The notes: a model not told the origin generated them from the letters alone. Positions 46,651 to 63,029 are shown, counted from the stretch's first letter. The stretch is DNA of 64,000 bases from a virus (IMGVR_UViG_3300032214_001486:32001-96000), one strand, 5' to 3'. Translations and numbers: made by a program.

Positions 46651-48120
46651 TCAGCGACGACGGCGGGGGTTCGACTTGACGTTCTCGCCCAGCATTTCGT
46701 CAATGACTTCGTTGATCAGCTTCTTGATCTCCGCTTCCAATTGAGCGTCGCTCATGCCCTCGCCCGACACAGCCGGGCCGCGGGAAACCGGCGCGACGAC
46801 CGGAGCGGAGACAACGGGCGACGGCGCAGGCGCGGGAGCCTCGGGGATAACCGGGGCCGGCGGCGTTGTCTCGATGATCGCCTTGGCGACTTCGGGCGAA
46901 CCCGCAGCAGCAGGACGAATGGCGGCCAGCAGAAGTACAATGTTCTTTTTGATGTTTTCGATAAACTCTTTTTGGAATTCCGCTTTGGTCTGGTTTTCTT
47001 TGGGCGCAGCCTTGGCCGCGTAACGGGCAAGACCAGCATAAACCTTATCTACCTCAGAAGGTGTACCCCCCTTCCGTTTGATCATTTCGCGTAGGGCGGC
47101 CTCGATTGCGGGTGTAATATCCACAGGATTACGCCGGGCACCGTTAGAACGTGTCAGACGGTTACGGGGGTTCCCCAGGATCTTAGCAAAGGCCGCGTCA
47201 ATCTCAGCCTGTTCGCGCTCGGCCTCTGTCATTTCCGGCGCAGCCGCAGGGGCAGGTACAGCAGACGACTCATTCATAGCAGCCAAAAGGAGATCAGACC
47301 CGTCATCTTCCTCGACGGCTTCGGCCTCGGGGGGCAGCGGCGAAGGCTGGGAGTCTACAATGTCCACGTCTACGCCGGCCTTATTGGCGATCTGCTCCAC
47401 CGTATCGGCCACGTTCTCGGAAATGGCCTGGGCCTGCTCGGCGGCGGCCGTCGCATCCTGGGCCGCAGCTACGGTCACCGGGACCGCATCGGCGGGCTTT
47501 TGCTTGCGGGTCCGGGTGACCTTTTCCGCACCCTCCACGACAGCGGCGGCGTTGTTCGTCACGCCCTGTAGACGCTTGGCCGCCTCTAACTGCGTTTTAA
47601 GATCCTCCAACGCCTGCGAGTACGCCACGGGAGGGCGGCCAACACGGGCAGGGAGGGCAGTCCAATCCTTGCCTGCGCTCGTCTTAAAGACCTTTTTTTG
47701 CAGCTCAGCGATGTTCCGCTCGATAGCCGCTACCGAGTCGGTCGTGTCCTGCTGCTTTGTCTCAACGACCGCCGCGGCGGCCTTTGTAATCTTGGCCGCA
47801 GCCTTTTGACCCTGGGCCTCGGTCAGATTGACGGTCGGAGTCGGCGGAGGGGAAACAGCCTCCTGCACCGCGGGGCTTTGCATACCCCCAGCCATAAAGT
47901 CCCTGTGGTATTCGCCGCCGGGAAGGAAGGCATTTTCGTCCAGGTTATTGTACGCGGCCAGCCACTTTAGGTAGGTCGCAACCGCACCAGGGGCCGGGTT
48001 GCGGCGGCTCTTTGGGTTGGCGCGGGGTATCCAAGAGGGCGGCGGCTGGGCCGTCCAGGCCGAGCTAACCGACACCCACCGCTCTCCACGCTGTTCGTGA
48101 CTGCTGTTCCGACGAGCCAT
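46651..48120 (-). CDS. low-complexity core-like protein with multiple RxN(P) motifs
   Basis: MARRNS, RANPKSRRNP, GNPRNRLTRSNGARRNP, KSNPRRRR; GGAGG RBS. Confidence 0.75.
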   Translation of the reverse strand: MARRNSSHEQRGERWVSVSSAWTAQPPPSWIPRANPKSRRNPAPGAVATYLKWLAAYNNLDENAFLPGGEYHRDFMAGGMQSPAVQEAVSPPPTPTVNLTEAQGQKAAAKITKAAAAVVETKQQDTTDSVAAIERNIAELQKKVFKTSAGKDWTALPARVGRPPVAYSQALEDLKTQLEAAKRLQGVTNNAAAVVEGAEKVTRTRKQKPADAVPVTVAAAQDATAAAEQAQAISENVADTVEQIANKAGVDVDIVDSQPSPLPPEAEAVEEDDGSDLLLAAMNESSAVPAPAAAPEMTEAEREQAEIDAAFAKILGNPRNRLTRSNGARRNPVDITPAIEAALREMIKRKGGTPSEVDKVYAGLARYAAKAAPKENQTKAEFQKEFIENIKKNIVLLLAAIRPAAAGSPEVAKAIIETTPPAPVIPEAPAPAPSPVVSAPVVAPVSRGPAVSGEGMSDAQLEAEIKKLINEVIDEMLGENVKSNPRRRR

Positions 48121-48179
48121 AAGTACCTCCAAAGCGAAATCGAAGTGTCCCTAACCCGGTTCAGGGCGCACGCAAGGCA

Positions 48180-48689
48180 TCATCGCACCCGCGAGGCCCG
48201 GCGTCTATACCCTTTGCGGGCCTTGTTTGCCTTGACGGTCGCAGTTTTAGGGCCCCCGGCCTTCGCTTGCACCGCTAATGCCGCCGCTTGGATTATTTCG
48301 TCCCCGTGCTCTTTTAACTGCTCGGCGACTAAGGAAGCAAGGGCCTTGGCCCGGTCGTCGTCAGACAGAAACAGCCGCGCAGCCGGGTTGAGGGTCGAGA
48401 GCTTGCGTAAAATCTCAATCTGCCTTTCCGGGGTCGCTGCTACGAATTCATCCACATGCCCCTGTACTTTCTTGATTACTGTGGGCAGAACAAGGGGGAG
48501 AATTGCACGCGCCGCTGCGACTAAGGCAGGATGGTTGGCACGAACCGGGGGAAGGGGGGAGCCCACCACGATCACATCAAGACCAGGGCGTTTAAGGGCG
48601 GCGGCGTCTAACAAGGCATCGGCCTTGTTTTTGTACGGGCCGACGTTCCCGTAAGCGTTCCCATTTTTTCTGATCTCGATGCGATACAT
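48180..48689 (-). CDS. basic protein with RxN motifs
   Basis: RKNG, RANHP, KANK; Arg-rich C-terminus. Confidence 0.7.
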   Translation of the reverse strand: MYRIEIRKNGNAYGNVGPYKNKADALLDAAALKRPGLDVIVVGSPLPPVRANHPALVAAARAILPLVLPTVIKKVQGHVDEFVAATPERQIEILRKLSTLNPAARLFLSDDDRAKALASLVAEQLKEHGDEIIQAAALAVQAKAGGPKTATVKANKARKGYRRRASRVR

Positions 48690-48718
48690 GGTGGGCTCCC
48701 AAGGTGCGACGGCTTACT

Positions 48719-49891
48719 TTACTTCCGGGCGCGGAAGCTGATTTTGCGACCATCGCGGGTACGGAAGCTCACGTTGCTGTTGCGACGGCTGTTCGCACGG
48801 AGCGCCATCGACTGCACGCGCTCACCCGCCGGCAGGACGTTATCGAGCAGGGCCCGGCTGGTGGCCGGCTTGCGGCTGCTGACGCGGTAGACCCACGCTT
48901 CCCAATTGCGACCGTTGACCGCCCCATCCACAATGAAGCCGTCCACGACTTCACCCAGACCGGCGTTCTTGAATTCGGCAAGGCTTTCATCACCATCGTC
49001 GATCATGTCCAACGCCATTTTCTGACTAATCCGGTGATCCGCGACCTTCGCCGCAGTACGGAGCAGAGTCTTGGCGTCAATGGCCGCCGCGCGAGCGGTC
49101 GCGTAAGGCCCGAGATCGGCCCCGCGGTTGAGGTCGAATTCACCGTTTACCAGCACGGCGACGCGGTAGATACCCACGCCGGCCCGCCGACCGCCCTTCG
49201 CCTTGTGCTTCTCGCTGATTTTCACCCGAGTAGCAGTAGAGGGCACAATCCCCTTGCGCGAAGCACGGCCCTTGGGGGCCTTGCGCTCCGCAGGAAATGC
49301 CTCTTTCATTCCCGCGCGCACAATAGCCAGCCGTAGCTCCTCGGCCGTCAATTGCGAGTAGCTCGGGATCTTCAGACTCTTAGCCTCCTTCAGCAGACCT
49401 TTACGGTCCAGCCCGCTGATCTCCTCTTGAATTTCTTGGCGCGTTTGAGCCCGCTCACTCTTGGGGGCTTTGTCCGGCAGCGGGTAGGAAACATCCACCT
49501 CAGCCTTGACAACGGCCGCCAGCAGATCCTTCGCGCCCATCTTCGATAGGCCGGTCAGGCCCAGATCTTTTGCATCTGTGCGAAGGATATTTAGCTTTTC
49601 TTCCCCCTTGTACTTAGCGTAAGCAGCACGGACTTCCGCCCGATACTGCTTGCGCTGCTCCTTGATTTCACTCAAAGTAAAACCGCCGGAGACAGCCTGA
49701 GCGGCGGGCTTCGAGGCGGCAGGCTTCGGAGCCGGGGCGGGGGCGGGGGCGGGCGCCGCGACCGGGGCCTTGGGGGCCTTGGGGGCAGCGGAGGCGGCAG
49801 CGGCTTGAGCCTTTGAGGGGCGGTCGCGCTTCTTTTTTTCGCCGGCCTTAGCCTCGGTTTTGGTGTCGGTGCTGTTTCGGAAAACCAACAT
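48719..49891 (-). CDS. very basic DNA-binding/core-like protein with two Rho-N/HeH-like motifs
   Basis: LRTDAKDLGLTGLSKM..DLL and LLKEAKSLKIPSYSQL..EL; FRNS N-terminus, RANSRRNS near C-terminus. Confidence 0.7.
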   Translation of the reverse strand: MLVFRNSTDTKTEAKAGEKKKRDRPSKAQAAAASAAPKAPKAPVAAPAPAPAPAPKPAASKPAAQAVSGGFTLSEIKEQRKQYRAEVRAAYAKYKGEEKLNILRTDAKDLGLTGLSKMGAKDLLAAVVKAEVDVSYPLPDKAPKSERAQTRQEIQEEISGLDRKGLLKEAKSLKIPSYSQLTAEELRLAIVRAGMKEAFPAERKAPKGRASRKGIVPSTATRVKISEKHKAKGGRRAGVGIYRVAVLVNGEFDLNRGADLGPYATARAAAIDAKTLLRTAAKVADHRISQKMALDMIDDGDESLAEFKNAGLGEVVDGFIVDGAVNGRNWEAWVYRVSSRKPATSRALLDNVLPAGERVQSMALRANSRRNSNVSFRTRDGRKISFRARK

Positions 49892-49923
49892 TACAGTCTC
49901 CTGTCGGTGCGGGGGTGTGGGGG

Positions 49924-50307
49924 TTACTGCGAAACCATCAGAGCCAATTCGACGGTCACCGCATTTCCGGCGGGTGCTGTGACGGCGAGCCGGATAAACT
50001 TGCTCGGCACGACCGCCACAGGAATTACGGTTGGAACCCCCGGTGGAAGTACAGTAGCAGATACCTCTAAGGGGATCAAGGTCTGAACCGCGTTGGCGTC
50101 AGAAATTGAGGCTTGAACCGAAACGGTCGCCCCCGCAGCCCCCGCCGTCTGACTCGCATAGACCAGAAGGCGCGGGGCGCCTCGGTTTTGGAGATAGGTG
50201 AAGAACGTGGTAGCCCCCGCATTGATCACGCGCGCTTCCCAATACTGAGAAAGCTGCGTGGCTGCGACGACTATAGCGCCCGTGGCGGTTGCGTTTACAT
50301 GCGACAT
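49924..50307 (-). CDS. small beta-rich virion-like protein
   Basis: All-beta pattern, KFIRLAVT; in capsid-like operon. Confidence 0.6.
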   Translation of the reverse strand: MSHVNATATGAIVVAATQLSQYWEARVINAGATTFFTYLQNRGAPRLLVYASQTAGAAGATVSVQASISDANAVQTLIPLEVSATVLPPGVPTVIPVAVVPSKFIRLAVTAPAGNAVTVELALMVSQ

Positions 50308-50316
50308 ACTGCCCCC

Positions 50317-51003
50317 TTAGTAGTACGACGCCATGAGTCGGAAATTGTTACTCGGGACGCCGGCCACAAGCCAGCCCGGCTCGTCTATGAGAGGCGAGCT
50401 ACGGTACTGAAAGCGAAGCTCGCAGCGCCAGTAACGGATGGGGTAGCCCCCACCAGTCGGCATGAATTGGGCGACGGCGGAAGGCATCGTGCCGACAAAA
50501 TCGGTCGTTATGTCCTCGTCGTCGGACACCTGCTGAATGGCGTTGGGGTCGTTGATGCTTGCGTATTCCCGCGCAAGCACCCGGAACCCAAAGGACCGAG
50601 CCCATGTGCGGAAATTCAGGTTGTAAATCTGGACCCACAGCTTGCCCGCAGCCCCCAACGGCCGCCAGATCGGGTATGTACCCGTGTTCTGGACGACCGT
50701 TGGCGTGGCTACAGGGGGCCCAAACGTCTGCGGCGAACCCGTCAGATAGGCTTGACCCTGGCCCCGGTCCATCGCTGCGCCACGAAGCTCGGGGCGCAGG
50801 TCGAAGGTAGCAGAGCGCCAAACCGCCTGGGCGTAGACCAGGGGCTCGGCAAGCTCCAGCGCGTACTGCAATTCGATGGGGGTGATATTCCACAACGCCG
50901 TAGGCATGTTTGCCGGATACGGGTAGGGAATGGCCCCCAGCGGATTTGCGAGGAACGCAGCATCCGAAAATTGGTCGGGATTGCGACCGGGGATTTTTGT
51001 CAT
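50317..51003 (-). CDS. virion-like protein (minor capsid or penton candidate)
   Basis: Follows the capsid-like pair; W.S.TFDLRP..RYWR.ELRF. Confidence 0.55.
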   Translation of the reverse strand: MTKIPGRNPDQFSDAAFLANPLGAIPYPYPANMPTALWNITPIELQYALELAEPLVYAQAVWRSATFDLRPELRGAAMDRGQGQAYLTGSPQTFGPPVATPTVVQNTGTYPIWRPLGAAGKLWVQIYNLNFRTWARSFGFRVLAREYASINDPNAIQQVSDDEDITTDFVGTMPSAVAQFMPTGGGYPIRYWRCELRFQYRSSPLIDEPGWLVAGVPSNNFRLMASYY

Positions 51004-51005
51004 GC

Positions 51006-51701
51006 TTATTGACCGACGGTGTAGTTGCTGGGCGCGCGAACCTCGACACAATGCAGAGAAATGTCGATCCGCAGAGAGGCGAGCAGCGGCGTGATCCCAA
51101 GCTGGACGGACGCGCCCGGCTGAATGACATAGCCCGTGCCGCCGACTTCGCCGGGGTTAAAGCCGTCACCGATACAGGTTGTCGCCAACCGCGGGCCGGT
51201 CATCAGCTTGTCGCCTGTCGAATACTCGATGCGGAACAGGTACGTTCCGTTGGCTTGCACGCCCAGCGGGAAAGCGTTGCCGACCCCCGTATTGAACGCA
51301 CCGCCGTTCATGGCGATAAGGTAACAGGGAATGTCAAAGTTGACAATTCGAATAGCCTCCTGCCCAACCGTATAGTCCGGGTCACCCGACGACAAAGTAG
51401 CGCCGTAGAACCGGGTCTGTGTGCCGATATTGCCGGAAGTAGGCAGATACGGGGCGGTCGGGAACACCGGGACACGAACAGCGCGAGGGGTCTGCGGCTT
51501 TTGCGCGGCCTGCTGCGTCACCTGCAAGAGCGCCTGCAATTGCTGGCCCTGGGCCGCAACCTGCTGGGCTTGAATATGTAGCTGGGCCTGTAGGGCTGCG
51601 ATGTAATTACCGACCGCACCGCTATTCCCGTAGGGGTCAGCCCCGGCAACCAGCGCGCCCATGCCGGGCATTTGCGTAACCGCGGATCGAAAGTCAGACA
51701 T
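51006..51701 (-). CDS. putative second single jelly-roll capsid protein
   Basis: Q-rich N-terminal helix, then beta-rich RIVNFD..FRIEY..LM.GP..G..PG..YVIQPG. Confidence 0.5.
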   Translation of the reverse strand: MSDFRSAVTQMPGMGALVAGADPYGNSGAVGNYIAALQAQLHIQAQQVAAQGQQLQALLQVTQQAAQKPQTPRAVRVPVFPTAPYLPTSGNIGTQTRFYGATLSSGDPDYTVGQEAIRIVNFDIPCYLIAMNGGAFNTGVGNAFPLGVQANGTYLFRIEYSTGDKLMTGPRLATTCIGDGFNPGEVGGTGYVIQPGASVQLGITPLLASLRIDISLHCVEVRAPSNYTVGQ

Positions 51702-51837
51702 GATTTACCCCTTTGTGGGAGTACGGAGAGGGAGACAGGGGGGAGTATACCCCAAGGGGGGCCCCGAGGGGAATAGGCAAACCGGGGCGGGCCTGGGGGC
51801 CTGGAGGCTTGGGGCCTGGGGGCCTGGGGTGTAAATG

Positions 51838-51880
51838 CACAAAAGTAAGACGGCCCGCCCGCGGAGTCCGGGGCGGGCCG
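51838..51880 (-). terminator. intrinsic terminator or attenuator after major capsid-like gene
   Basis: CGGCCCGCCCCGGACTCCGCGGGCGGGCCG stem-loop followed by TCTTACTTTT. Confidence 0.65.
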
Positions 51881-51928
51881 AATGGGGAGTATCGGAAGGG
51901 GAAACCGACCCTCCACCGGGGGTACAGA

Positions 51929-52621
51929 TCAGCCGATCTCGATCACGTTCTTGTAATAGCCCAGGAGAGCGACCTTGATCGCCAGGGCGAAGTTCGCGCC
52001 TACGGCCGGGGCGCGGCTACCAAAGCGGAGGATGGTCGAGAAGGTCGTGGTGGCCGGGAGGGCGACCGCGTGCTTCCGGTACATCCAAACGCTACCAGCA
52101 CCGTTGTTCATCGCGCCGCTGTTCGCGCCGGCCGCGTTCTGCGACACGGAACCAAACGCGCCGCCACCAGCGCCGATCATGTGGATCGGGCTAATGTCAA
52201 CGGTGGTCTGGGTGAAGTCCCAGCTCAGTACGCCGTTGTTGAGCACGTTCTGGAGGTTGCCGATCTTCTCGGGGGTGTCCAGGGGAGCCGCGAGGGAGCT
52301 ATCGAGGCCCGTGCCGCAGTAGACGTGGCACGAAATGCCGAATACGTCGAACGCGACACCGGCCGGGATACGACCGCCTTCCTTCAGAGAGGTTTCGGCG
52401 ATTGTCAAGGCTTGGCCGAAGCCTTGCCCCTGCTGCCCGAGCGGGGTCGCAAACAGACGGTTGGTGCTGTTGGCGAGCGCCGCGGTCGCCGCAAAGCCCT
52501 GGGTACTCCAAATACTTTGCTCGCCGTAGCGGAAAAGCTGGGTGGGTTGGCGGAACGGAACCGGGGGGATCGAAATGTCGGGCGGGGCCACGAGGGCCAT
52601 GCCGGGAGTGCCGTAGGACAT
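51929..52621 (-). CDS. putative major capsid protein (single jelly-roll type)
   Basis: 230 aa, beta-rich; LF..P.G..LT.AETS..GG.IP..F.V.GI pattern recalled from SJR capsid proteins; strong C/G third-position bias; own terminator. Confidence 0.6.
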   Translation of the reverse strand: MSYGTPGMALVAPPDISIPPVPFRQPTQLFRYGEQSIWSTQGFAATAALANSTNRLFATPLGQQGQGFGQALTIAETSLKEGGRIPAGVAFDVFGISCHVYCGTGLDSSLAAPLDTPEKIGNLQNVLNNGVLSWDFTQTTVDISPIHMIGAGGGAFGSVSQNAAGANSGAMNNGAGSVWMYRKHAVALPATTTFSTILRFGSRAPAVGANFALAIKVALLGYYKNVIEIG

Positions 52622-52692: not shown

Positions 52693-54105
52693 TCAGAACG
52701 CCGAGCCCGCAAAGAGGGTAGCACCAAGCTCCCCGCTGCTGAGGGCCAAGCCGTTCATATCGAGCGCCAAACCGGCGGTTTCACCCGCGGTCGCGGCAGA
52801 GGGGGTAACAACGGAGGCCGGTACAGTGGTCTGCGCGCCGGGGTTGGTCCCCGCCGAAGCAGCCGCCGCGGCGGTCTGCTGCTCAACCGTGGCGATAGCC
52901 TGGGCCTTGATTTGCTCCAAGAGAGCGACGCGCTTCTCGGGGGAGAGCGCCGCGATCTTCGCAAACCGTTCCCAGCCGACCAGACAGATCAACCAACCGA
53001 AACGGTGACCGGGGCGGCCCGCGAGCGAGCTAATACCCTGACCGTTATAGTTGATCGCCTGCGTCGGAGCGTCCCCGAAGGTGCGGTGCCAAGCGTGCTG
53101 ACCCGAAAGGGCAGCTTGGCCCTCCTGTACGGAGAGATCGGCGGGGGCGTAGTAGGCATCGGCAAGGCTGGCTCCGCTGTAATCTACAGCGGAGCCCTTA
53201 CCGAAAGGGACGACATCATAGGCCATCCCGTCGCCAAAGCCGGCAGTATCGGTGAGGGCAAGGCCCGACATATCGGTGAGAGCGAGGCCCGACATATCAG
53301 TGAGGGCGAGGCCATCAAGGTCGTCGTCGTCACCCGACAGATCATCGTCGTCGTCACCGTCAAGGTCGAGATCGCCAAGATCGCCGGCCTTGTCGGACAG
53401 GAAGCGGTAAATGTCGAGCGCGCCGCCTACAAGCAGAGCGCCGACCGCAACCTGATTACGAAGCTCTTTGGAGCCGACCGGGACAAAATTCAGGACAGTG
53501 GCGACAGCGGCGCCCTGTACGGTGAACTTGACCGGCGAAATGGCGCGGAGGGCCGACTTAACAGCCGGGACCGCGCTCAGACCGCGCATCAGGCCGTAGT
53601 GGACAGCGCCCACCGCGACACCGACGAGGATCGGAGAAATGTACCCCGCGACAGTGTTACCGACGACCGGGATCTTGCGGGCCAAGCCCTCGACCGGAGC
53701 GGTAAACTGGTTGCTGAACGCGCCAAAAGCGTTCCGGCGTACAACCTTCTTACCCCGGCGGCGGTTGCCGTGGAGGTTCATCAGAAGGGTGTTCCGGCGC
53801 ATACGGCGCATACCGTTCCGGTGCATACCGCGCAGCCCATTCCGGCGGCCGTTGCCGTGAAGGTTCATCAGCAGGGTGTTCCGGCGCACACCGCGGCGGG
53901 CGTTGCGGCGACCGTTGCCGTGAAGGTTCATCAGCAGCGTGTTCCGGCGGTGGGAAGTGTTCCGCCGACGAGCAGCCCCCTTCCGCTTGCGGTTGGTACG
54001 CAGCTTTAACCCAGCGAGAGCGCGAGCAGCGCCCCGCTTCGGGTTAGACTTGGATACGAACAACGCGCCGCTGAGCGGTGCGCCGTTACGGAACATGAGG
54101 GGCAT
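52693..54105 (-). CDS. tripartite core/membrane protein: RN-repeat basic N-terminus, TM segments, acidic GLALTD repeats
   Basis: RRNTLLMNLHGN x3; hydrophobic helices; GLALTD x3; AAAGGAG RBS; directly upstream of MCP candidate. Confidence 0.8.
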   Translation of the reverse strand: MPLMFRNGAPLSGALFVSKSNPKRGAARALAGLKLRTNRKRKGAARRRNTSHRRNTLLMNLHGNGRRNARRGVRRNTLLMNLHGNGRRNGLRGMHRNGMRRMRRNTLLMNLHGNRRRGKKVVRRNAFGAFSNQFTAPVEGLARKIPVVGNTVAGYISPILVGVAVGAVHYGLMRGLSAVPAVKSALRAISPVKFTVQGAAVATVLNFVPVGSKELRNQVAVGALLVGGALDIYRFLSDKAGDLGDLDLDGDDDDDLSGDDDDLDGLALTDMSGLALTDMSGLALTDTAGFGDGMAYDVVPFGKGSAVDYSGASLADAYYAPADLSVQEGQAALSGQHAWHRTFGDAPTQAINYNGQGISSLAGRPGHRFGWLICLVGWERFAKIAALSPEKRVALLEQIKAQAIATVEQQTAAAAASAGTNPGAQTTVPASVVTPSAATAGETAGLALDMNGLALSSGELGATLFAGSAF

Positions 54106-54234: not shown

Positions 54235-54278
54235 ACCCCGACCGCATCCCCCTCAATTTCGTGCCGTAGGTGACAGAT

Positions 54279-54594: not shown

Positions 54595-55230
54595 TTAGTG
54601 CGTGATGCCGTTATTGGGGCAGGTGTATCCGCCGCCGACAATCCAGAAATTGCCGTCCGCAGAAACCGCCAGGGCCGGCTCGATCCCGCCTTCCTCCCCC
54701 ATCCGGTGAATGTACTTGCTCGCCGGGTCATCACCCTTTTTGTGGGTGAAGTAGGTGACGTAGTAGAGGATACCCAGCGGCTTGACGGTCACATCGGGGT
54801 AACCGTGCAGGTGGTGCCCGCCAATTTCCTTCGCCAAGTCTTTCAGCTTGATCCGCGAGCTTGACGGCAGCGCGTTCCATAGCTGCTGCGCGTCCCGCTT
54901 GGACGTTTGAGAGAGCAGAATATAGAGGCGCTGATACTTGTGCTTAGGGTCGAAACTCAGGTGATTGTTATTGTAATCTTCAGGAGGTACTTCAATCAAA
55001 GCCAGGGTAGAAGGCTCATTTCCCATGCGGGCCGCTTCCTCGTGAAGCGACTTGGTTTTCACCATACGCAGGTTGAGCCCTTCTACCGGGTCGAAGTGTA
55101 GCTCGGTGAGCAGCCCACACTCCATGAGCGGGTGCTTAGCCGACAAGCCGGGAACATCAAATTCCCGCTTGTGCGTGGCGGGATTGCCCCAATGCCAATC
55201 TTGGTAGATTTCGTTGTACTTGCGCGACAT
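54595..55230 (-). CDS. conserved-looking hypothetical protein of the virion module
   Basis: Y..WHWG..GLL.EL..Y.T.K..YIH.MGEEGG..P.L..GG.Y..GI; AGGAG RBS. Confidence 0.75.
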   Translation of the reverse strand: MSRKYNEIYQDWHWGNPATHKREFDVPGLSAKHPLMECGLLTELHFDPVEGLNLRMVKTKSLHEEAARMGNEPSTLALIEVPPEDYNNNHLSFDPKHKYQRLYILLSQTSKRDAQQLWNALPSSSRIKLKDLAKEIGGHHLHGYPDVTVKPLGILYYVTYFTHKKGDDPASKYIHRMGEEGGIEPALAVSADGNFWIVGGGYTCPNNGITH

Positions 55231-55232
55231 AG

Positions 55233-56012
55233 TTAGACTCCCTTGAAAGCCAGCAGGACCAGACCAAGAACGGCGACGGTGCCGACCCCACCATACACCA
55301 TCAACCGCTGTTTACGGGCACGCGCTCGCCGCGCTTTCACTCGCTGGTTTTTGCGTTTCTTCTTTTTTTCTTCCTCGGAAGCGCCCGGTGTGAGGGCGTC
55401 CTTGGTCGCGGCCTCCTCTGCGCTGGGGTCCAGCTTGTACTTTTGCTGGTCAGCGACCATTTGCGGTAAGCCGGTGCCCCCCTTGGGCCGCTCACCAAAG
55501 TAGACCGACAACGCTCGCAATTGAGGGTCAGACACAATCTGAGGGCCGCTGACGGCTTGAACAGCAGCCCACCCTTGACCCATGATCGAAACGATAGCCC
55601 CTATGTCCTTTGAATTGATTTTCAGAGAGTCAACGCGGCCCAAGGTAGCCTTCGCCGCGGAGGCAAGGCCGGGATTTTTGAGATACCGGGCGGCCAACGC
55701 CATGAGATAGGCGGATTTAACGTAGGCTTGCGCCATATCCGTAGGCGCCTTCTGGACCCGGTTCGCAGCAGGCCCCATGAAACCGATGATGGTGTTGAGC
55801 CAAGCCTGATTTTCAGCCAAGCCGATCTGCTCTAAGGCTTCGTCGGGCTTGACCGAAGTGAAGTCGTATTTTTCGTTTAAGTGCTCTGCGTACTTCCCGG
55901 CTGCCGCGCCAATGACGTAGCGCCCCCCATAATAGGTGCCGACCGCCAGCGGAATGAGAGGCACCCCATACCCGCCGTCAGAGTGGGCAGAGGGCCGAAA
56001 AAAGGTCGTCAT
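55233..56012 (-). CDS. tail-anchored membrane protein
   Basis: Basic run, then C-terminal TM LMVYGGVGTVAVLGLVLLAF; ATGA overlap. Confidence 0.75.
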   Translation of the reverse strand: MTTFFRPSAHSDGGYGVPLIPLAVGTYYGGRYVIGAAAGKYAEHLNEKYDFTSVKPDEALEQIGLAENQAWLNTIIGFMGPAANRVQKAPTDMAQAYVKSAYLMALAARYLKNPGLASAAKATLGRVDSLKINSKDIGAIVSIMGQGWAAVQAVSGPQIVSDPQLRALSVYFGERPKGGTGLPQMVADQQKYKLDPSAEEAATKDALTPGASEEEKKKKRKNQRVKARRARARKQRLMVYGGVGTVAVLGLVLLAFKGV

Positions 56013-56971
56013 GGTTGGGTTTCCTTCCGGCCTTTGCCGTGCGGGGCTTTGTTTGCCTGGGAGTATAGCACAGCCCCCACACCCAAAACACCCAAACTCA
56101 GCCAACCCCACACAGGTACACCGCCGACCTTGCGGGCCATTTGGCCTTGAAAAGACGCTGCTTCTACAGCTTTGGCCGTATCGACCTGCGCCTGTTGTGC
56201 CTGTTGTGCCTGTTCTTGTGCCTGCCGCCGCGCTTCTGCCCGCCGTTCCTTTCGTTCCTCCCGCCGTTCGTCATAAGACGCTTCCAACGCTTCGATAAGG
56301 GCGATTTTGGCCTCTAACCGCGTCCGTTGCTTTTTGAGCCGGTTCGGGCCGCGCATGATACCAAAAGAGAGGACTTGAAGCGTGCGGCGAGCACCGGGGC
56401 GGCGCTTCCATTTGCGCTGACGCTCCTTTACTTTGCTCAGGCGTTTCTTGTATACGCCCAACTTTTTGAGCCGCCAATCTTTCGGTTTGCGCGCTAATTT
56501 GATGACAAAGCCCGGTACTTCCTCGGGGTCGGGCAGCCCGAGCTTCTTTGCCCAGGCGATTGCCCGCTTCTTATTGACCTTGCGCTGGCGAATACCTTTG
56601 ACCAGGGCGATTGTGCCCGCGGTCGCCGCGAGCACCCCGCCGACAATCCAACCCACAACCGGGACGGTCGCAGACGCCCCCGCCGCTGTGAGAAGGCCCG
56701 TGGTGGCCCCGCCGGCAGCTACAGCCCCACCAGCCCCCGCAGCGGCAGCCGCGCCACCCGCGGCAGCAGCCCCGCCGGCAGCCGCAACGCCGCCCGCAGC
56801 CGCGCCGCCCCCGCCGGCAAGCAAGGCGCCGATTTTCAGCCCTTGAACGCCCATGCTGGCCGTATTGGCTACGCCCTCGGCGGCCATCGCGGCATTTTCG
56901 CCGCCAGAGCTAACACCGCCCCGGCCCCAATCCGGGCTGGGCTCGCTGTACGGGGATGGAAGAAAAGCCAT
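56009..56971 (-). CDS. membrane protein with Gly/Ala-rich hydrophobic region and C-terminal TM
   Basis: GA-rich run, VPVVGWIVGG, basic coil, VPVWGW TM. Confidence 0.75.
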   Translation of the reverse strand: MAFLPSPYSEPSPDWGRGGVSSGGENAAMAAEGVANTASMGVQGLKIGALLAGGGGAAAGGVAAAGGAAAAGGAAAAAGAGGAVAAGGATTGLLTAAGASATVPVVGWIVGGVLAATAGTIALVKGIRQRKVNKKRAIAWAKKLGLPDPEEVPGFVIKLARKPKDWRLKKLGVYKKRLSKVKERQRKWKRRPGARRTLQVLSFGIMRGPNRLKKQRTRLEAKIALIEALEASYDERREERKERRAEARRQAQEQAQQAQQAQVDTAKAVEAASFQGQMARKVGGVPVWGWLSLGVLGVGAVLYSQANKAPHGKGRKETQP

Positions 56972-56974
56972 AGC

Positions 56975-57766
56975 TCACCCGGTTGCGCGCTGTCGGCGCA
57001 CGAAGCGGGCTGTTAGACCCAATAAGAGCAAAACGCCGCCCACAACGGTTACTTGGCCGAGTGTCCGCCATGTGCGCCGGGCGCTCTCTTGTTCCCGCTG
57101 TAGCTCGACGCGGCGCTCGGCCGCTTTTAGCTTGGCTTTCAGGACACGAAGCCGGGCCTGTAACGGGCCCCGCAGAAGGGGCGGGGCCCGCTTGATCATT
57201 TTTTGGGTATTCTTGATCCGTGCCCGCAGTACCTCTTGCTGCTGCGTCGGGTCAAGGACTTGTTCTAAGCCCGTCTTGACCAACGGCGCATACTCTTGGA
57301 TCATGGCTTCCGTAGAAGCCGAGGACGATGCAGCCTTATCCCCGGCGGGCGCCGCTTCCCCTTCCCCGTAGTCAGACAGAACAGACGCCCGGAAAGCTCC
57401 CCCGGCAGAGCCCGCAAGGTCTGTGGGCGCCCCCGGCTGATCTTCTTCGATCTTGTACTGCAAGTAATTACGGACCTTGGCTACATCGTGAGCCGCGGTC
57501 GCAATTTTGTAGTGGTTCCATTGGGGGATAACGTCACCGTCCTGTAACAGACGGCGCAGGACGCCCGCATCCCGCTGGATCTGCGCGAGCGCCGACTTTG
57601 CCATTTTGCCTTGATACGGCATAGGGTAGTCGAAATTCCGCACAACCGGGATGGGGGTCGGCATGGTGCCCAGGCGGGTAACGCCGCTCGGGCCGGCGAA
57701 ACCGGCGAGGCCGGGGTTAGAAAACACACCGGACAGGTGGGCAAGGTGGCGAGAGCGGTAAGACAT
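56975..57766 (-). CDS. tail-anchored membrane protein with MAK..L..I..PQW..KI helical domain
   Basis: GKMAKSALAQI..IPQWNHYKIATA..V..YL; C-terminal TM. Confidence 0.75.
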   Translation of the reverse strand: MSYRSRHLAHLSGVFSNPGLAGFAGPSGVTRLGTMPTPIPVVRNFDYPMPYQGKMAKSALAQIQRDAGVLRRLLQDGDVIPQWNHYKIATAAHDVAKVRNYLQYKIEEDQPGAPTDLAGSAGGAFRASVLSDYGEGEAAPAGDKAASSSASTEAMIQEYAPLVKTGLEQVLDPTQQQEVLRARIKNTQKMIKRAPPLLRGPLQARLRVLKAKLKAAERRVELQREQESARRTWRTLGQVTVVGGVLLLLGLTARFVRRQRATG

Positions 57767-58149
57767 TACTGTTTTCCCTTACGCTTTTTGAGTACAACGT
57801 AGCCGCCGATCAAAGCCAACCCCAGCACCCCACCGATAATGAGGGGCCAGGGGGTAGCCGCGGGGGGCGCCGCCGGGGCTGCGACCGCGGGGGCTTGGGC
57901 CGGACGGGCCCGCCGACGCCCCCGGCGACGACGGCGACGGCGCAGGGATGCAATCTGCGTGCCCGCGCCGACAGCCGACGACGTGAGCGTTGACAATGCC
58001 CCGGCCCGTTCCTCCGTAAGCCACGGTGTTTTCGCTGTTTTAGTAGCAGCGGCGGCAGCGGCAACGGCCGGCGCAGCTTCCCCTAAAGCCAGAAAGCCAA
58101 AGTGACCTTCCGCCACGGGGAAGCTGTACGGGCTCGGGTTAAAGCGCAT
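57766..58149 (-). CDS. small tail-anchored membrane protein with poly-Arg
   Basis: RRRRRRRGRRR; PWPLIIGGVLGLALIGGYVVLKKRK. Confidence 0.75.
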   Translation of the reverse strand: MRFNPSPYSFPVAEGHFGFLALGEAAPAVAAAAAATKTAKTPWLTEERAGALSTLTSSAVGAGTQIASLRRRRRRRGRRRARPAQAPAVAAPAAPPAATPWPLIIGGVLGLALIGGYVVLKKRKGKQ

Positions 58150-59570
58150 TAGCTCTGCTTACCCTCTTTCTTGCCGCTCATGGTGACGAAAAGCAGGATA
58201 GCGGCACCAACGCCGACCGGAATGGCCCAGGAGGGCAGACCGCTGGTTTCTTCCGCGGGAATTTCACCTTCCGGGGCGGGCGCCTCGACCACGACCGGAG
58301 CAGCGGCAGCCGCCGCCTTCCGCCGCTTTTTGCCCTTCCGGCGCTTCTTTCGCCCGATAGCACCCGCGACGTTGGTTGCCAGCCCCGCGGCAAGGGCGAC
58401 GCCCTTTCCAATGGCTTTGCGCCGAGCTTCCCGGTAGCTTTCCCAAGTACCAATCTCACCCGTGATCGCGTTCCACTTCTTCGCGTCCGATTTCTTGATC
58501 AAGGTGCCGGTGGGCAGCGCCTTGACGTTGCCACTGACACGAATTTCAATGGTGCCGTCCATAAACTGCCGATAAACGTAGCCCCCCGAGCCCGCCACAT
58601 CGCGGTACTGGCTCTTTTTGGGGGCCTTGTAGAGATCGGAGGGGTCCGCGGGCGCGGCAGGCTCGGCGGCCCCCAGGACCATATCGAGATCGGCAAGGTC
58701 AACGCCCGCGTATCCCGCGAAACGCGGTTGATCCTGGCGGATATAGGTGCCCGACCCCATGTAGGGGTAGGTGCCCCCGGTCAGATCGCGGGGAACCTTG
58801 GGGGCCGCCGCGTAGGCGCTCACGTTGGGGTCGCCCCGGCGCATGGGGCTTGTACCTTCCGGCCCGTCAAACATTTGCGGGGGAAATTGGTGGCCCTGGG
58901 CGGGGTAGGGCGGAACGCGGTGCGGAGCCGGAACAGCGGGCGGGGGAGTCCGCAGGATTAGGCCCGAAAGGTCGCCGGGCGTGCCGGGCGTGCCGACGGT
59001 GCCGGGATTGCCAAAGGCGGCAACCGGCGTGCGCTGCACCATCGCGTTTGCATAGGGTTGAACCGCCGATTGCTGGGCAGCCTGCTGGGCGGCCTGCTGC
59101 TCAAACGCATAGAGCGGGCGTACATTGGTGTCTTGGAAAATCGGCGTGCCGCCCGGCATCTTGTAGAGCGGCTGGGCGGCGGGGGGCCGATAGAGGTTTT
59201 CAGTCGGCTTGACCGCAAAAACAGGGCGAGCGTTCGGCGTAAACATCGCCTGCTCGGCCGATGCTGCCCGGACAACCGCGGCGGGCGCAGAAGTCGAGGA
59301 CAGAGCCGCGGCAGCGGCTTGGGTAACACCCGCCGCTGCGTTGGCCCGCTGTTGGAGCACTTGTAGCTGTACTTCCCCCTGAACGGCGGACTTTGCAGCT
59401 TGTGCGCTCTGTTTTTCTTCGTATTCAGGCGATCCATCGGAGCTTGGCACTTCACCAAACCCCCATTGACCGTCGAAAGCGTTGATAGCAGTTAGCTCCC
59501 CGTTTTGCAGGTCAAAGCCATACACACGGGGGTCCGCGTCAGTGTCATAGGTCGGTACAGAACTGCTCAT
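58149..59570 (-). CDS. low-complexity tail-anchored membrane protein
   Basis: GGYVYRQF.DG.IEI domain; LPSWAIPVGVGAAILLF TM. Confidence 0.75.
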   Translation of the reverse strand: MSSSVPTYDTDADPRVYGFDLQNGELTAINAFDGQWGFGEVPSSDGSPEYEEKQSAQAAKSAVQGEVQLQVLQQRANAAAGVTQAAAAALSSTSAPAAVVRAASAEQAMFTPNARPVFAVKPTENLYRPPAAQPLYKMPGGTPIFQDTNVRPLYAFEQQAAQQAAQQSAVQPYANAMVQRTPVAAFGNPGTVGTPGTPGDLSGLILRTPPPAVPAPHRVPPYPAQGHQFPPQMFDGPEGTSPMRRGDPNVSAYAAAPKVPRDLTGGTYPYMGSGTYIRQDQPRFAGYAGVDLADLDMVLGAAEPAAPADPSDLYKAPKKSQYRDVAGSGGYVYRQFMDGTIEIRVSGNVKALPTGTLIKKSDAKKWNAITGEIGTWESYREARRKAIGKGVALAAGLATNVAGAIGRKKRRKGKKRRKAAAAAAPVVVEAPAPEGEIPAEETSGLPSWAIPVGVGAAILLFVTMSGKKEGKQS

Positions 59571-59577
59571 GGCGTTC

Positions 59578-59835
59578 TCACGGGGTTTTGGTGAGGTTGC
59601 AGGCGATCCCCGCGAGGAAGCGGGCGGCGGCTTTTCTGGTCGCCGGGTCTGCGAGAGGCCGACCTTTGAGGGTTGGGTGCCAGTCTACCATAGAGGCGTG
59701 GAGCCAGTCAGCCAAAACATCCGGGTCGGTCTGCACACCATTCATTTTGTCAGCCAACGCCTTTTCGATGGCGTTTTGCCCGTACTCGCCCAACTTTGCG
59801 AGAAGCGACATAATTGCAGGAGAAACACCAAACAT
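59578..59835 (-). CDS. hypothetical protein
   Basis: AAGGGGG RBS. Confidence 0.65.
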   Translation of the reverse strand: MFGVSPAIMSLLAKLGEYGQNAIEKALADKMNGVQTDPDVLADWLHASMVDWHPTLKGRPLADPATRKAAARFLAGIACNLTKTP

Positions 59836-59909
59836 AAACCCCCCTTAGTGCGTTGCAAATAGGGGTTAGAGGTCGTGGATAGACCCCTAACCCCTGAATT
59901 GAGTGTCAA

Positions 59910-61370
59910 TCAGGCCGCGGAAGTAGCGCCGCTGGCCTTCTTGTCTTTGCCGTCCTTGCCCTTCTTCTTGGTGTAGATGTACCCGGCGGCAGCGCCGGCA
60001 ATCAGAAGGAAGAAAATGGGCTTTTTGTAGAACGGGGTGTCCTCGCCCGCCTCCGGGGCGCCGGCATCCTCGCCGCCCTCAGCGCCCTCGCCGCCCTCGG
60101 CATCCTCGGCATCCTCGGCGCCTTCCGCACCCTCGGCGCCTTCATCCCCTTGCGGAGCGTAGCCGGGGCCCGCCGCCGGGCCGGGGCCCTGCTCCAACGG
60201 TGTCGAATTCGGGAAGGCTTGGAAAGCCCCGCCGCGCTCACTCACCTGCGAAGGCTGGAAAGCCGACGTTTGCGGAGGAATATACATCGGGCTGGACGGG
60301 GCAGAGAATTGGGCCATCTGCTGACGCATCGCCGCCAATTGCTGCTGGTACTGCGCCTGCTGGGCGGCCAAAGCCTGCGCCTGAGCGGCAGAAGCCGCCT
60401 GGGCCTGCTGCTGGGCCAAAGCCTGCTGCTGCGCTTGCATCTGAGCAAGCTGAGCCTGCAAAGCCGCCCGGCGGGCGAGCCGAGCCTGCATAATCGCGCC
60501 GGGTACACCAGGGAGGACAGGGGCCGGCATCCCCGGCATCCCCGGCAGAACAGGACGGGCACCCGCGGCGACAACGGCCGGGAGCGCGGCAGCGGCAGCC
60601 GCGGGGAACGCAGCCGATGCACCGGGCGCACCCTTTAACCATTGGCCGATGTAAGCCGTCCGGTTCTTACGGAAATGGGCAATCGCGCCGGCCTTAGACG
60701 CGGCGTTGGGCGCCGGCAGCGCGCTGACGACCTGCGAAACCGCAGCATCATAGCGGGCAACGGCTACACCCGTCATGGGACCAGCCGCAAACAGCGGGCG
60801 GGTTGTCGCATAAATCCGCGGTTCAAGGCTGCGAATATACTGGACATACCGACCGTGGCGAACGCCCTTAATCGCGTCAATGCCGACCTTGCCCTTGGCT
60901 TCCGCGCGAGCCTTGGCCCGATCTTCCTTCTTATCCTTGCGCGACTTCAATAGCTCCAACGCCGCCTTTTGGCGCCGGGTTAGCTCCTTACCCTTGCTCT
61001 GCCGGCGCTCGACCCGGCGCTCGACCTTATCCTCGGCTCGACCTAATTTCTTCTCTAACCGTTCAATACGGCGACCGTAACGACGCTTTTGCCCCTCCGT
61101 CTTAGCGTACTTTAGCTTTGCTTTGAGCTTGCGTAGACGACCTTGAAGGCGGGCGATATTCCGGGGGGTAACCGAGACACCAAGATCGGCGGACAATTCA
61201 AGGCCGTCGATCTCCTGCTCGATCTGACCCAATTCCAGGGACATTTTATCCGCGTCGAAATCGGACAGACCCAAGGCGTTGCCGAGCGGGCCGCGAATGT
61301 TAATCGCCCCCGCAAAGTCCATGAGGGCCAAGCCGCTTAGCGAGTAAACGGCGGGGAGTAGGTTCACCAT
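59910..61370 (-). CDS. tail-anchored membrane protein with basic coiled coil and Q/A-rich linker
   Basis: PFYKKPIFFLLIAGAAAGYIY TM; promoter TTGCCT-17 bp-TATAGT upstream. Confidence 0.8.
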   Translation of the reverse strand: MVNLLPAVYSLSGLALMDFAGAINIRGPLGNALGLSDFDADKMSLELGQIEQEIDGLELSADLGVSVTPRNIARLQGRLRKLKAKLKYAKTEGQKRRYGRRIERLEKKLGRAEDKVERRVERRQSKGKELTRRQKAALELLKSRKDKKEDRAKARAEAKGKVGIDAIKGVRHGRYVQYIRSLEPRIYATTRPLFAAGPMTGVAVARYDAAVSQVVSALPAPNAASKAGAIAHFRKNRTAYIGQWLKGAPGASAAFPAAAAAALPAVVAAGARPVLPGMPGMPAPVLPGVPGAIMQARLARRAALQAQLAQMQAQQQALAQQQAQAASAAQAQALAAQQAQYQQQLAAMRQQMAQFSAPSSPMYIPPQTSAFQPSQVSERGGAFQAFPNSTPLEQGPGPAAGPGYAPQGDEGAEGAEGAEDAEDAEGGEGAEGGEDAGAPEAGEDTPFYKKPIFFLLIAGAAAGYIYTKKKGKDGKDKKASGATSAA

Positions 61371-61468
61371 GTGATCTCCAGGCAGAGTGTGTGGGCACTA
61401 TACAGAACGGTGGAACGAAAGGCAAGAGGCACGGTCAACCACCCCCACGGCGGACCTACTCCCCGACC

Positions 61469-61834
61469 TCAGTACCCCGCAAGGTAGGCGGCAGCGCCGT
61501 AAATCCAGCAGAAGTTATACAACGGCTGGCCCTCGTCGCACAAGCGGAAAGCCTCACGGAATAGTGTATACTCGGTCAAGTCAGCCTTTTCGCCCTCAGT
61601 CGAGCCCCACGACCGTTGTGTGCGGCCAATTTGATCCTCCTGACGGACATGCAGGATCTCAGCCGCCTTCTCCAAAACAAGCAACAGCCGCGGATCTCGG
61701 GATCGGGCTGCGCGCATCCCCTTCTCAGAGAAGGTGTGATTACGCATTTCCATCGCTTCCATCGCCTTGCGGTACGCACGCTCTACCGAGTGCAGCGTGA
61801 TCGGCTCAGGTAGCTCAATTCCAGCGGTCCCCAT
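61469..61834 (-). CDS. hypothetical protein
   Basis: GGGGG RBS; helical. Confidence 0.6.
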   Translation of the reverse strand: MGTAGIELPEPITLHSVERAYRKAMEAMEMRNHTFSEKGMRAARSRDPRLLLVLEKAAEILHVRQEDQIGRTQRSWGSTEGEKADLTEYTLFREAFRLCDEGQPLYNFCWIYGAAAYLAGY

Positions 61835-61860
61835 AGTGAATACCCCCCTTTGATTGTGGT

Positions 61861-62751
61861 CTATGTGCTTGACTTCGACCGCTTCGTTGCCAGGGTCTTA
61901 ATCCCGGTGCGAAGGCGGTCCACTACAAACCCGGAAATCAAACCGACAATGATGATCGGAAAAAAATTGCGCGGGTGCAGCTTTGTAGTAACCTCTTTCC
62001 GTACATGCTGCACAAACGGAAGCGCCGGCCCCGCAGGGATGGGCGGAAGGGCCTCTTGGGCCTCCGAGGCCATCGCGCTCGCCGCTGCCGGCATGAGGCT
62101 GGTGAATAGGGAGGAAGCGGCCCCGTAGCTGATAGAGGGGCCAGCAAGCTCCGGCAGAATTGAAGTCTTTTTCTTCTTGTGGTGCTGGACAACATCCCAC
62201 CCTAAAGGAACACCCTGTAGCGTCGGCTCGGCATAGGCCCATTGTTTCGGTACATACGGGGGCCACCCGACCACGACATAAATATGCGACCACGAGGCAC
62301 GCTTTTTGGGTGTGCCTTCAATCCAGCGCACCATTTCGTTGCCGCGCTTTCCCGATAGCACATAACGCCAGGGAAGTCGCATACTTTCGTAGAGCGCGGC
62401 CAAAAGTATCGCCATATCGTCACAATCGCCGTGGCCCACGTCCAGGGTCACCAACGGGTCTTGTAGCCGCTCCCCGCTTTCATTGGCGTAGTAGATCGAC
62501 CCTTGAACCCAAGCAAGCATCGCCTCGGCCTGCTGCTTGTACTGTCGGGGCGGGATCTTCGCCGCCTTGCAAATGTCAACGGCCAGCTTCGCAATCCGGG
62601 GGTCTTTGCCCCCTTTAAGGGCGATCTCCCGCAACGCCGCGATGCGCGTAGGGTCATCCTGATTTTTCCAAGTGGGAAGGTGGTACACCTTTGTCGTCGC
62701 GTCGAGATCGACTTGACGAGTAGGAAACACACCCAATTGCTGCATGGTCAT
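61861..62751 (-). CDS. transglutaminase-like cysteine protease with C-terminal membrane anchor
   Basis: GDCDDMAIL (Cys), WSHIY (His), YAEPT (acid); C-terminal TM; ATGA overlap sets start. Confidence 0.85.
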   Translation of the reverse strand: MTMQQLGVFPTRQVDLDATTKVYHLPTWKNQDDPTRIAALREIALKGGKDPRIAKLAVDICKAAKIPPRQYKQQAEAMLAWVQGSIYYANESGERLQDPLVTLDVGHGDCDDMAILLAALYESMRLPWRYVLSGKRGNEMVRWIEGTPKKRASWSHIYVVVGWPPYVPKQWAYAEPTLQGVPLGWDVVQHHKKKKTSILPELAGPSISYGAASSLFTSLMPAAASAMASEAQEALPPIPAGPALPFVQHVRKEVTTKLHPRNFFPIIIVGLISGFVVDRLRTGIKTLATKRSKSST

Positions 62752-63029
62752 AGGGTCGCTCCGGTCTGGACAGCGGGAGAAGCGAGAACAGCGGCGGCTT
62801 CTGCCTTCTTTTTGCGTCGGGTCAGGACCAGCAGGACCACGCCGCCGAGCAAAAGAACGCCAGAGCCCGCCAAGGCAGGTACGAGCCAAACGGAGGGCTT
62901 CTTCTTCGGCTTCTTCTTCGGTTTCTTTTTCGCCGGGGTCGGAGCCGGGGCCGGGGGAGTGTTCCCCCAAGACTCAGACTGCGCGGAGGGCTGAAACTGA
63001 ATGGGGGGCTGAAAAATGGCTTGTGGCAT
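62748..63029 (-). CDS. small basic membrane protein
   Basis: KKKP repeats, TM helix, RRKKK; GAGGA RBS. Confidence 0.7.
   Translation of the reverse strand: MPQAIFQPPIQFQPSAQSESWGNTPPAPAPTPAKKKPKKKPKKKPSVWLVPALAGSGVLLLGGVVLLVLTRRKKKAEAAAVLASPAVQTGATL

Follow-up and report, generated by a model that had tools for sequence, protein, structure and literature searches.

A putative jelly-roll capsid and membrane-protein module in a large bacterial virus lacking recognizable packaging and tail genes

We analyzed a window of 64,000 nucleotides, corresponding to bases 32001-96000 of a single 104,974-bp virus record in IMG/VR. The record, referred to here as G000, has a GC content of about 60%, and a codon-bias scorer called 113 genes in it. 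From position 46651 to the end of the window (coordinates are those of the window unless stated otherwise), some 22 closely spaced genes lie on the minus strand, and this block runs on for about 3 kb past the window end. Except for a Transglut_core domain in the frame at 61861-62970, none of the approximately 22 products had a significant match in Pfam or PHROG. Two of the genes, designated G and F, lie 228 bp apart, and AlphaFold2 (AF2) models of both products are eight-stranded single jelly rolls. The proteins on which the following analysis centers, with lengths in amino acids (aa), are listed below.

51929-52621, minus strand: G, 230 aa; single jelly roll, the best candidate for a major capsid (capsomer) protein
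51006-51701, minus strand: F, 231 aa; N-terminal helix followed by a jelly roll, a candidate second capsid protein or penton
50317-51003, minus strand: E, 228 aa; always adjoins F, a candidate minor capsid or vertex protein
49924-50307, minus strand: D, 127 aa; beta-rich by eye
52693-54105, minus strand: H, 470 aa; basic N terminus with RRN repeats, hydrophobic segment, Asp-rich linker, and conserved C-terminal domain
54595-55230, minus strand: I, 211 aa; hallmark protein whose motifs contain invariant His, Glu, and Cys
55233-56012, 56009-56971, 56975-57766, 57766-58149, 58149-59570, 59910-61370, 61861-62751, and 62748-63029, minus strand: run of eight C-tail-anchored proteins, the last two of which are R and S
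61469-61834, minus strand: Q, 121 aa; hallmark protein, 27-52% identical to its counterparts in four of four complete relatives
61861-62751, minus strand: R; transglutaminase-like cysteine protease anchored to the membrane near its C terminus (residue 262 of 296)
62748-63029, minus strand: S, 93 aa; basic and tail-anchored, with a 4-bp overlap with the start of R

The AF2 model of G (pLDDT 90.2, pTM 0.81) begins with an arm of about 25 residues modeled at low confidence, after which comes the eight-stranded jelly roll. Foldseek matches to this model were nearly all coat proteins of small icosahedral viruses, plus SPV1, and included the PRD1 vertex protein P5. In BFVD, the matches were coat proteins of circoviruses and CRESS-DNA viruses, with the best TM score (0.48-0.52) to a nameless entry, I1ZBH9. 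Using VIA-align, the closest structure was the SPV1 capsid protein 6oj0 (Z 8.7, root-mean-square deviation 3.2-3.4, 134-136 aa aligned), which heads the list, yet only by about 1 above unrelated rows. It was followed at Z 6-8 by nucleoplasmin cores, the phage cement protein KHP40 (Z 7.7), the SPMV coat protein, HHIV-2, HCIV-1 (chains of 167-174 aa, Z 6.3-6.4), and P23-77 VP17 (Z 6.1); a chain of the Pam1 capsid asymmetric unit scored 6.5-6.7.

Relatives of G form 188 representative clusters at 50% identity, 99 of them with E ≤1e-10. A tblastn search found no match to G among 50,697 GenBank phage records, and thus no cultured relative there. In L017, a contig of an alphaproteobacterial metagenome-assembled genome (MAG), the gene is duplicated in tandem (L017:7816-9202), with copies 60-62% identical to G, which looks like a step towards a shell built from two capsomer proteins. 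Some distant relatives (P0136, P0140, P0142, P0156, and P0161) are longer, at 305-400 aa, and in these an extension of 120-210 aa precedes a C-terminal jelly roll resembling G.

The model of F (pLDDT 79.1) comprises a conserved N-terminal peptide, a helix at residues 27-65, and a jelly roll at residues 74-222. At 90% identity, its relatives fall into 61 clusters; the majority of homologues have a length of about 180 aa, and the long helix is specific to the closest relatives. As for G, the Foldseek list was dominated by viral jelly-roll coat proteins. The top structural match was 6h82_b (Z 8.4), a 135-residue chain covering residues 39-173. The penton VP9 of HHIV-2 consists of one beta-barrel, a membrane-contacting helix at the N terminus, and, in HHIV-2, a disordered stretch of 40 residues at its start (PMC6414509), a description that the 6h82_b chain fits. 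Because the best match of the modeled F fits this penton, F may be a vertex protein instead of a second major capsid protein. Next came a tail-fiber domain of phage 7-7-1 (Z 8.2-8.3), the second jelly roll of P3 from PR772 and PRD1 (Z 7.5-8.0, with PR772 P3 at 8.0), SPV1 6oj0 (Z 7.8-7.9), the KP1 baseplate (Z 7.4-7.7), an HCIV-1 chain of 229 aa (Z 7.4), SH1 (Z 7.0), and VP17 (Z 6.5-6.7).

The alignment tool's own guide states that best Z scores of 7-8 are typical even for queries without true relatives. At the level of the predicted models, G and F are therefore established as viral-type single jelly rolls by fold class, while kinship to any particular family is not established. Profile searches with G, F, E, and I against PDB sequences returned nothing below E 0.1. 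Profile-profile comparison with hhalign detected no similarity between G and F, E and G, or E and F, and by this sequence measure the three proteins are not detectable paralogues.

The genes adjoining the jelly-roll pair are also conserved. E is kept beside F in seven relatives at 24-38% identity; it had no match in Pfam, PHROG, or PDB, and its ESM Atlas matches, with scores <0.9 and TM <0.2, were uninformative. D is conserved in G001 (38% identity over its full length) and L006 and had no family match. H, with an isoelectric point (pI) of 10.5 and a hydrophobic segment at residue 147, is conserved directly upstream of G in six relatives and is a candidate for linking DNA, membrane, and capsid. 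I is found in all relatives, including the four complete genomes, and had no Pfam, PHROG, or PDB match. Across seven sequences it has 35 invariant positions, among them the motifs WxWG, GGxH, YxHxxGEE, and GGxYTxPxxGIT, and this conservation pattern looks more like that of an enzyme or metal site than that of a shell protein.

Between 55233 and 63029 lies the run of proteins with predicted C-terminal membrane anchors; in the six encoded at 55233-61370, these are hydrophobic 17-mers within the last 60 residues with 3-9 Lys or Arg in the flanks. In a crude hydrophobicity scan, such anchors were flagged in 10 of 20 module proteins compared to 7 of 95 elsewhere (Fisher p = 2.5e-5), where two of the ten module proteins, D and G, are false positives caused by beta-strands. 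Six of the anchored proteins (55233-61370) are basic, coiled-coil, and rich in Ala, Pro, and Gln, and are candidate virion membrane proteins; this part of the run is partly conserved in G001, L006, and G011 and has no family matches. S carries the strongest hydrophobic anchor of the block (Kyte-Doolittle value 2.52), with 8 Lys or Arg in its flanks. The eight predicted tail-anchored proteins fit a lipid-containing particle. Six proteins of the module have pI values of 10.2-12.0 (48180-48689, 48719-49891, 52693-54105, 56009-56971, 57766-58149, and 62748-63029).

R provided the single family match in the module. The 61861-62970 frame matches Transglut_core (PF01841) at E 3.5e-10, with 40.5 bits against a cut-off of 23, and retains the Cys of a GDCDD motif and a downstream His in SHIYVV. 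Its true start is probably at 62751 and not at 62970. R is a candidate maturation protease or virion-borne wall-degrading enzyme.

A preliminary description of the window had pointed to two adjacent beta-rich proteins of about 230 aa, the E and D genes next to them, about eight C-terminal anchors with basic flanks, a set of very basic proteins, and a membrane-anchored Cys protease. Each of these stood up to the analysis: the adjacent pair are G and F, the E and D genes are where it placed them and are kept in seven and two relatives, respectively, eight anchored proteins lie in a row, six proteins are very basic, and the protease scores above the family cut-off with the catalytic Cys and His present.

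The remaining genes of the block, and a large gene just beyond the window, are as follows.

46651-49891, minus strand: A, B, and C; lineage-specific Ala/Lys-rich proteins, candidate DNA-condensing core proteins
59578-59835, minus strand: small protein within the anchored run
63104-64000, minus strand: continuation of the module, with an acidic protein of 195 aa and the beginning of one of 247 aa, kept in G001 and G005
L004:2473-5250, just right of the window, minus strand: 925-aa acidic protein without a family match

A, B, and C are not conserved in the relatives, save for a 32-aa match of B in G001. B has a pI of 10.4, and C has a pI of 10.2 and a weak Rho_N/SAP-like match (Rho_N E 2.8e-4, below the cut-off). 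A motif seemingly common to B and C was not significant. In the 925-aa protein, about 370 residues rich in Glu, Arg, and Gln resemble a coiled coil, and the chain also includes a region rich in Pro and Gln and a poly-Asp tail. Both G001 and G005 keep this protein, and its ESM Atlas matches, with scores <0.9 and TM <0.2, were uninformative. It is a candidate scaffold or size ruler.

G was found on nine further IMG/VR contigs of 39-93 kb and on three more in GTDB MAGs, and L005-L008 and L015-L017 share with G000 the gene order R, Q, membrane proteins, I-H-G-F-E. Four relatives end in direct terminal repeats and were for this reason taken as complete: G001 (72,988 bp), G005:C152 (92,743 bp), G011 (92,736 bp), and G012 (60,113 bp). 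The repeats are exact, at 127 bp in G001 and 141 bp in G005:C152, while G011 and G012 are direct-terminal-repeat records listed by IMG/VR as 100% complete. In G001 the repeat splits PolA, which indicates a circularly closed assembly.

Only G, F, I, Q, R, and an SNF2 helicase domain are common to G000 and all four complete relatives. G is the best conserved, with 61, 54, 40, and 36% identity in these four genomes, compared to 54%, absent, 39, and 29% for PolA. PolA, the SMC-like ATPase, AAA_24, and the nuclease are all missing from G005:C152, which carries a 920-aa Walker-A protein in place of the lost replication genes; it retains the morphogenesis block, SNF2, Nudix, and the recombinase. Since this genome lost the former set and kept the latter, the replication module appears to have been swapped there and would be exchangeable, with the jelly-roll block defining the group. 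Most large G000 proteins without an assigned function (820, 786, 663, 371, 351, and 340 aa) had no homologue detected in the four complete relatives, the 925-aa protein being the only large one found in any of them (two of four). These proteins therefore include no universal capsid, portal, or terminase.

Packaging, head, and tail genes were sought by six-frame hidden Markov model searches in which control genomes were positive, each family being run on five to ten of ten records. Terminase_6N and TerL_ATPase had no match in ten records, three of them complete, and Terminase_6C had none in the five records tested. Phage_portal and Phage_capsid, one Pfam family of each kind, had no match in five records. 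Pox_A32 had none in five records and FtsK_SpoIIIE none in five, three of them complete; one or both of these ATPase profiles were run on seven records in all, including three complete ones. Pfam and PHROG sweeps of 112 G000 proteins gave no head, packaging, or tail family among the 25 listed in each, except phrog_1645. The absence of terminase, portal, HK97 capsid, and tail genes from the 64 kb, already remarked on in the preliminary description, thus extends, for the families listed in the sweeps and those searched directly, to the whole 105-kb record. Of the two packaging systems it had set against each other, an FtsK-HerA/A32 ATPase was not found, and terminase and portal profiles likewise had no match in the tested records.

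A Walker-A scan of all frames identified AAA_24, the SMC-like ATPase, and thymidine kinase (TK) in G000, AAA_24 and the SMC-like ATPase in G001, and the single 920-aa protein in G005:C152, with no Walker-A protein common to the three. The G000 proteins all belong to the replication arm and are absent from the complete genome G005:C152. The AAA_24 ATPase (contig 26470-27405) was considered as a packaging enzyme and rejected given its location in the replication arm and its loss together with PolA in G005:C152. A hidden RNA polymerase was also considered, and matches to a DxDGD motif in three genomes fell only inside Asp-rich low-complexity runs.

Outside the module, G000 carries the following features.

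Left arm and start of the window: replication and nucleotide genes encoding a fusion of uracil-DNA glycosylase (UDG), exonuclease, and PolA, TK, an SMC/SbcC-like ATPase, and a tyrosine recombinase
Same arm: three SNF2 helicases, a PD-(D/E)XK nuclease, an AAA_24 ATPase, methyltransferases, Nudix, and a GHKL-type ATPase
11920-12753, plus strand: the tyrosine recombinase, adjoining the SMC-like ATPase and kept in three of four complete relatives
19182-20759, plus strand: 525-aa protein, the sole long plus-strand gene there, with minus-strand gene runs on both sides
Contig 10974-17766, left of the window: ten tRNA genes and a one-piece transfer-messenger RNA (tmRNA; tag ANNNNHFGNAVPVLVAVAA)
Near the right end of the record: membrane-anchored M15 peptidase

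All of the replication genes named in the preliminary description (PolA, here fused to UDG, TK, the SMC-like ATPase, and SNF2 helicases, of which there are three) are present. The conservation of the tyrosine recombinase suggests either lysogeny or a circular genome whose dimers are resolved. Of the 113 genes, 56 are preceded by a Shine-Dalgarno motif, compared to 10.6% of random positions. Together with the tmRNA, the tRNAs, and the M15 peptidase, these motifs point to a bacterial host for G000, as judged from its gene content. Three relatives were found in proteobacterial MAG bins, a weak host hint.

G000 is a linear record without end repeats, and CheckV estimates its completeness at 85%. 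Both contig ends (L002:1-175 and L004:9750-10973) lie within Asp/Glu-rich open frames on the plus strand. The two frames could be one gene split by assembly, in which case little sequence would be missing; G000 may be nearly complete and circularly permuted, with the gene broken in a low-complexity repeat.

The 525-aa protein matches phrog_1645 (E 2.7e-39), with 27-33% identity over 90% of its length. The homologue is a "virion structural protein" of T4-like cyanophages encoded between the cyanophage terminase subunits. It is not a tail hallmark. Since no homologue was detected in the four complete relatives, the 525-aa protein is probably an acquired surface or receptor-binding protein.

Collectively, these findings suggest that the block is the late morphogenesis operon of an undescribed group of large bacterial double-stranded DNA (dsDNA) viruses, with complete genomes of 60-93 kb and at least 105 kb in the case of G000, that are not tailed phages and whose virion is tailless, jelly-roll-based, and lipid-containing. 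We assign this reading a probability of about 0.6. The capsid roles that we infer draw on fold class, conservation, and gene context. In the assembly pathway we envisage, G would form the capsomers of an icosahedral shell and F either a second capsomer type or the pentons, with E and D as minor shell or vertex proteins. The shell would be laid on an internal lipid vesicle bearing the eight tail-anchored proteins and H. DNA would be condensed by basic proteins (the N terminus of H, B, and C) and the condensed genome enclosed during assembly, without pumping by an ATPase; we favor enclosure because no motor is conserved, and the same has been proposed for SPV1. The 925-aa coiled-coil protein could act as scaffold or size ruler, and R could process structural proteins or open the cell wall at entry. 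A more specific proposal, which we put forward as tentative and consider somewhat more likely to be wrong than right, is that these viruses form a new high-rank lineage of bacterial viruses with dsDNA genomes of 60-105 kb, a single-jelly-roll icosahedral shell over a membrane, motor-free assembly, and G, F, I, Q, and the protease as hallmarks.

Several observations weigh against a tailless, membrane-containing virion. The capsid role, the inner membrane, and motor-free packaging all come from reading genes. Every fold match has Z ≤8.7, which is rated near background for models without a clear relative, and the jelly-roll fold turns up as well in phage cement proteins (KHP40, Z 7.7), in tail-fiber and baseplate domains (Z 7.7-8.3), and, at Z of about 7-8, in nucleoplasmins. 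The case against a packaging enzyme is built on profile searches plus a scan for the Walker-A motif, and a novel motor is an alternative, for which the SNF2 translocase of three of four complete relatives is a candidate. Finally, the 525-aa protein is homologous to a virion protein of T4-like cyanophages, and G000 itself, at an estimated 85% completeness, has no terminal repeats.

The remaining probability is shared by four other explanations and by readings beyond those named here. The preliminary description had read the block as that of a much larger relative of SH1 and P23-77. In such a virus, G and F would correspond to the small and the large vertical single-jelly-roll major capsid protein, paired in heterodimers that build pseudo-hexamers on an inner membrane, and the genome would be packaged by an FtsK-HerA/A32 ATPase that has diverged past detection or is encoded on missing sequence. 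The two genes are indeed adjacent, as are VP7/VP4 and VP16/VP17, many membrane proteins are present, and G and F match HCIV-1 and VP17, and F also SH1, at Z 6.1-7.4. The capsid-like folds it anticipated were thus recovered, with HCIV-1, HHIV-2, SH1, and P23-77 VP17 among mostly viral coat neighbors, but the kinship was not supported: the full range of Z scores to sphaerolipovirus proteins (6.1-8.4) is near background, the matches at Z 6.1-7.4 stand among many unrelated jelly rolls and below those to SPV1, the profiles match no PDB sequence, neither Pox_A32 nor FtsK_SpoIIIE was detected in seven records, no Walker-A protein is common to G000, G001, and G005:C152, and the genomes are 2-3.5 times the approximately 30 kbp of Sphaerolipoviridae. 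We consider this explanation unlikely. A shade less likely still is an extremely divergent tailed phage whose HK97 capsid, portal, and terminase evade the profiles, with G and F serving as decoration, cement, fiber, or baseplate proteins and the membrane proteins in lysis or superinfection exclusion. The resemblance of G to KHP40 (Z 7.7) and the Pam1 chain (Z 6.5-6.7), that of F to the 7-7-1 tail fiber (Z 8.2-8.3) and KP1 baseplate (Z 7.4-7.7), the cyanophage-like 525-aa protein, and ESM Atlas neighbors labeled Uroviricota speak for such a phage. However, TerL is usually the easiest phage gene to detect and had no match in ten records, the genes common to the five genomes include no unassigned protein of at least 250 aa that could serve as capsid, portal, or terminase, the large G000 proteins without assigned function have no detectable G001 homologue, and G itself has no tblastn match in the GenBank phage records.

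A lipid-enveloped or pleomorphic virion without an icosahedral shell could also have eight tail-anchored proteins and many basic ones while lacking a packaging motor. Its outer envelope would house the tail-anchored proteins, and G and F would serve as matrix, nucleocapsid, or spike components surrounding a nucleoprotein core. Jelly rolls do serve as spikes and vertex proteins, and PRD1 P5 appears in the Foldseek list of G. We judge this improbable, to about the same degree as the divergent tailed phage, as the two most conserved proteins are coat-like jelly rolls with low-confidence N-terminal arms and G is duplicated in tandem in one lineage; tandem gene duplication is typical of capsomer proteins. 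The least probable of the four, with very little in its favor in our estimation, is a non-virion membrane apparatus, such as a replication compartment or a secretion- or conjugation-like system, of a plasmid-like element misfiled as a virus. Such an element would account for the lack of recognizable virion hallmark families, for the many membrane and coiled-coil proteins, and for a tyrosine recombinase kept in three of four complete relatives. It would not account for jelly-roll folds with coat-protein neighbors, a lysis-type M15 peptidase, tRNA and tmRNA genes, and a PolA of its own, or for relatives bearing terminal repeats like packaged virus genomes, and neither VirB4 nor VirD4, nor any other secretion ATPase of the P-loop type, is present.

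If a tailless jelly-roll virion with an inner membrane and no recognizable packaging motor is correct, it would raise the size limit of prokaryotic jelly-roll capsids and provide a bacterial case of capsid assembly around the genome. To our knowledge, the genomes of all characterized tailless bacterial viruses that contain a membrane measure at most about 45 kb, and, SPV1 aside, we know of no tailless membrane-containing dsDNA virus that does not have a packaging ATPase. It would also mean that a widespread, unlabeled capsid family is being missed, or filed under tailed phages, by virus-detection pipelines, and, under the new-lineage proposal, that the group was overlooked despite 188 metagenomic clusters of the G family alone. 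No description of such a virus group was found in the literature searched. The five hallmark genes (G, F, I, Q, and R) offer a direct handle for mining the group and finding its hosts.

Among known systems, the tailed phages (Caudoviricetes) are set apart by the terminase, for which no match was found, although one too divergent for the profiles is possible. PRD1-type phages (Tectiviridae and Corticoviridae) are tailless; their virions contain an inner membrane and lytic enzymes, small membrane proteins are numerous, the capsid is built from a single double-jelly-roll protein, and the 10-15 kb genomes encode a packaging ATPase. The second jelly roll of P3 can be aligned with F (Z 7.5-8.0), but the jelly rolls here are single and the genome is far larger.

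The transglutaminase-like protease, I, and Q are hallmarks of the present group for which we know of no sphaerolipovirus counterpart. Sphaerolipovirus-type viruses (SH1, HCIV-1, HHIV-2, and P23-77) have adjacent genes for two single-jelly-roll capsid proteins, a helix-bearing jelly-roll penton, and a protein-rich inner membrane (PMC6414509), and the ICTV profile gives genomes of about 30 kbp for Sphaerolipoviridae. The likeness lies in the adjacent jelly-roll genes and in F, whose best match fits the HHIV-2 penton (Z 8.4). It does not extend to sequence or profile similarity, and the group differs from sphaerolipoviruses in packaging ATPase and genome size: no FtsK-HerA/A32 ATPase was found, and genomes are 2-3.5 times larger.

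The design most resembles that of SPV1 (Portogloboviridae), to which, by analogy, it appears closer than to PRD1 or the sphaerolipoviruses. In SPV1, jelly-roll VP4 hexamers and VP10 pentamers lie over a membrane and a nucleoprotein core, with sub-capsomer membrane proteins and no packaging ATPase among the nine open reading frames with assigned functions (PMC8459092). The group described here, known from its genes, likewise has two predicted single-jelly-roll proteins, and the SPV1 capsid protein is the best structural match of G. There is, however, no sequence similarity, the Z score is near background, and membership in Portogloboviridae breaks down on host and genome size: SPV1 infects a hyperthermophilic archaeal host (Sulfolobales) and has a 20-kb genome without a polymerase, whereas the signals here are bacterial, the genomes are 60-105 kb, and most of them encode PolA and SNF2 helicases. 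Under the tentative new-lineage proposal, these viruses would be a bacterial counterpart of the SPV1 architecture at three- to five-fold larger genome size.

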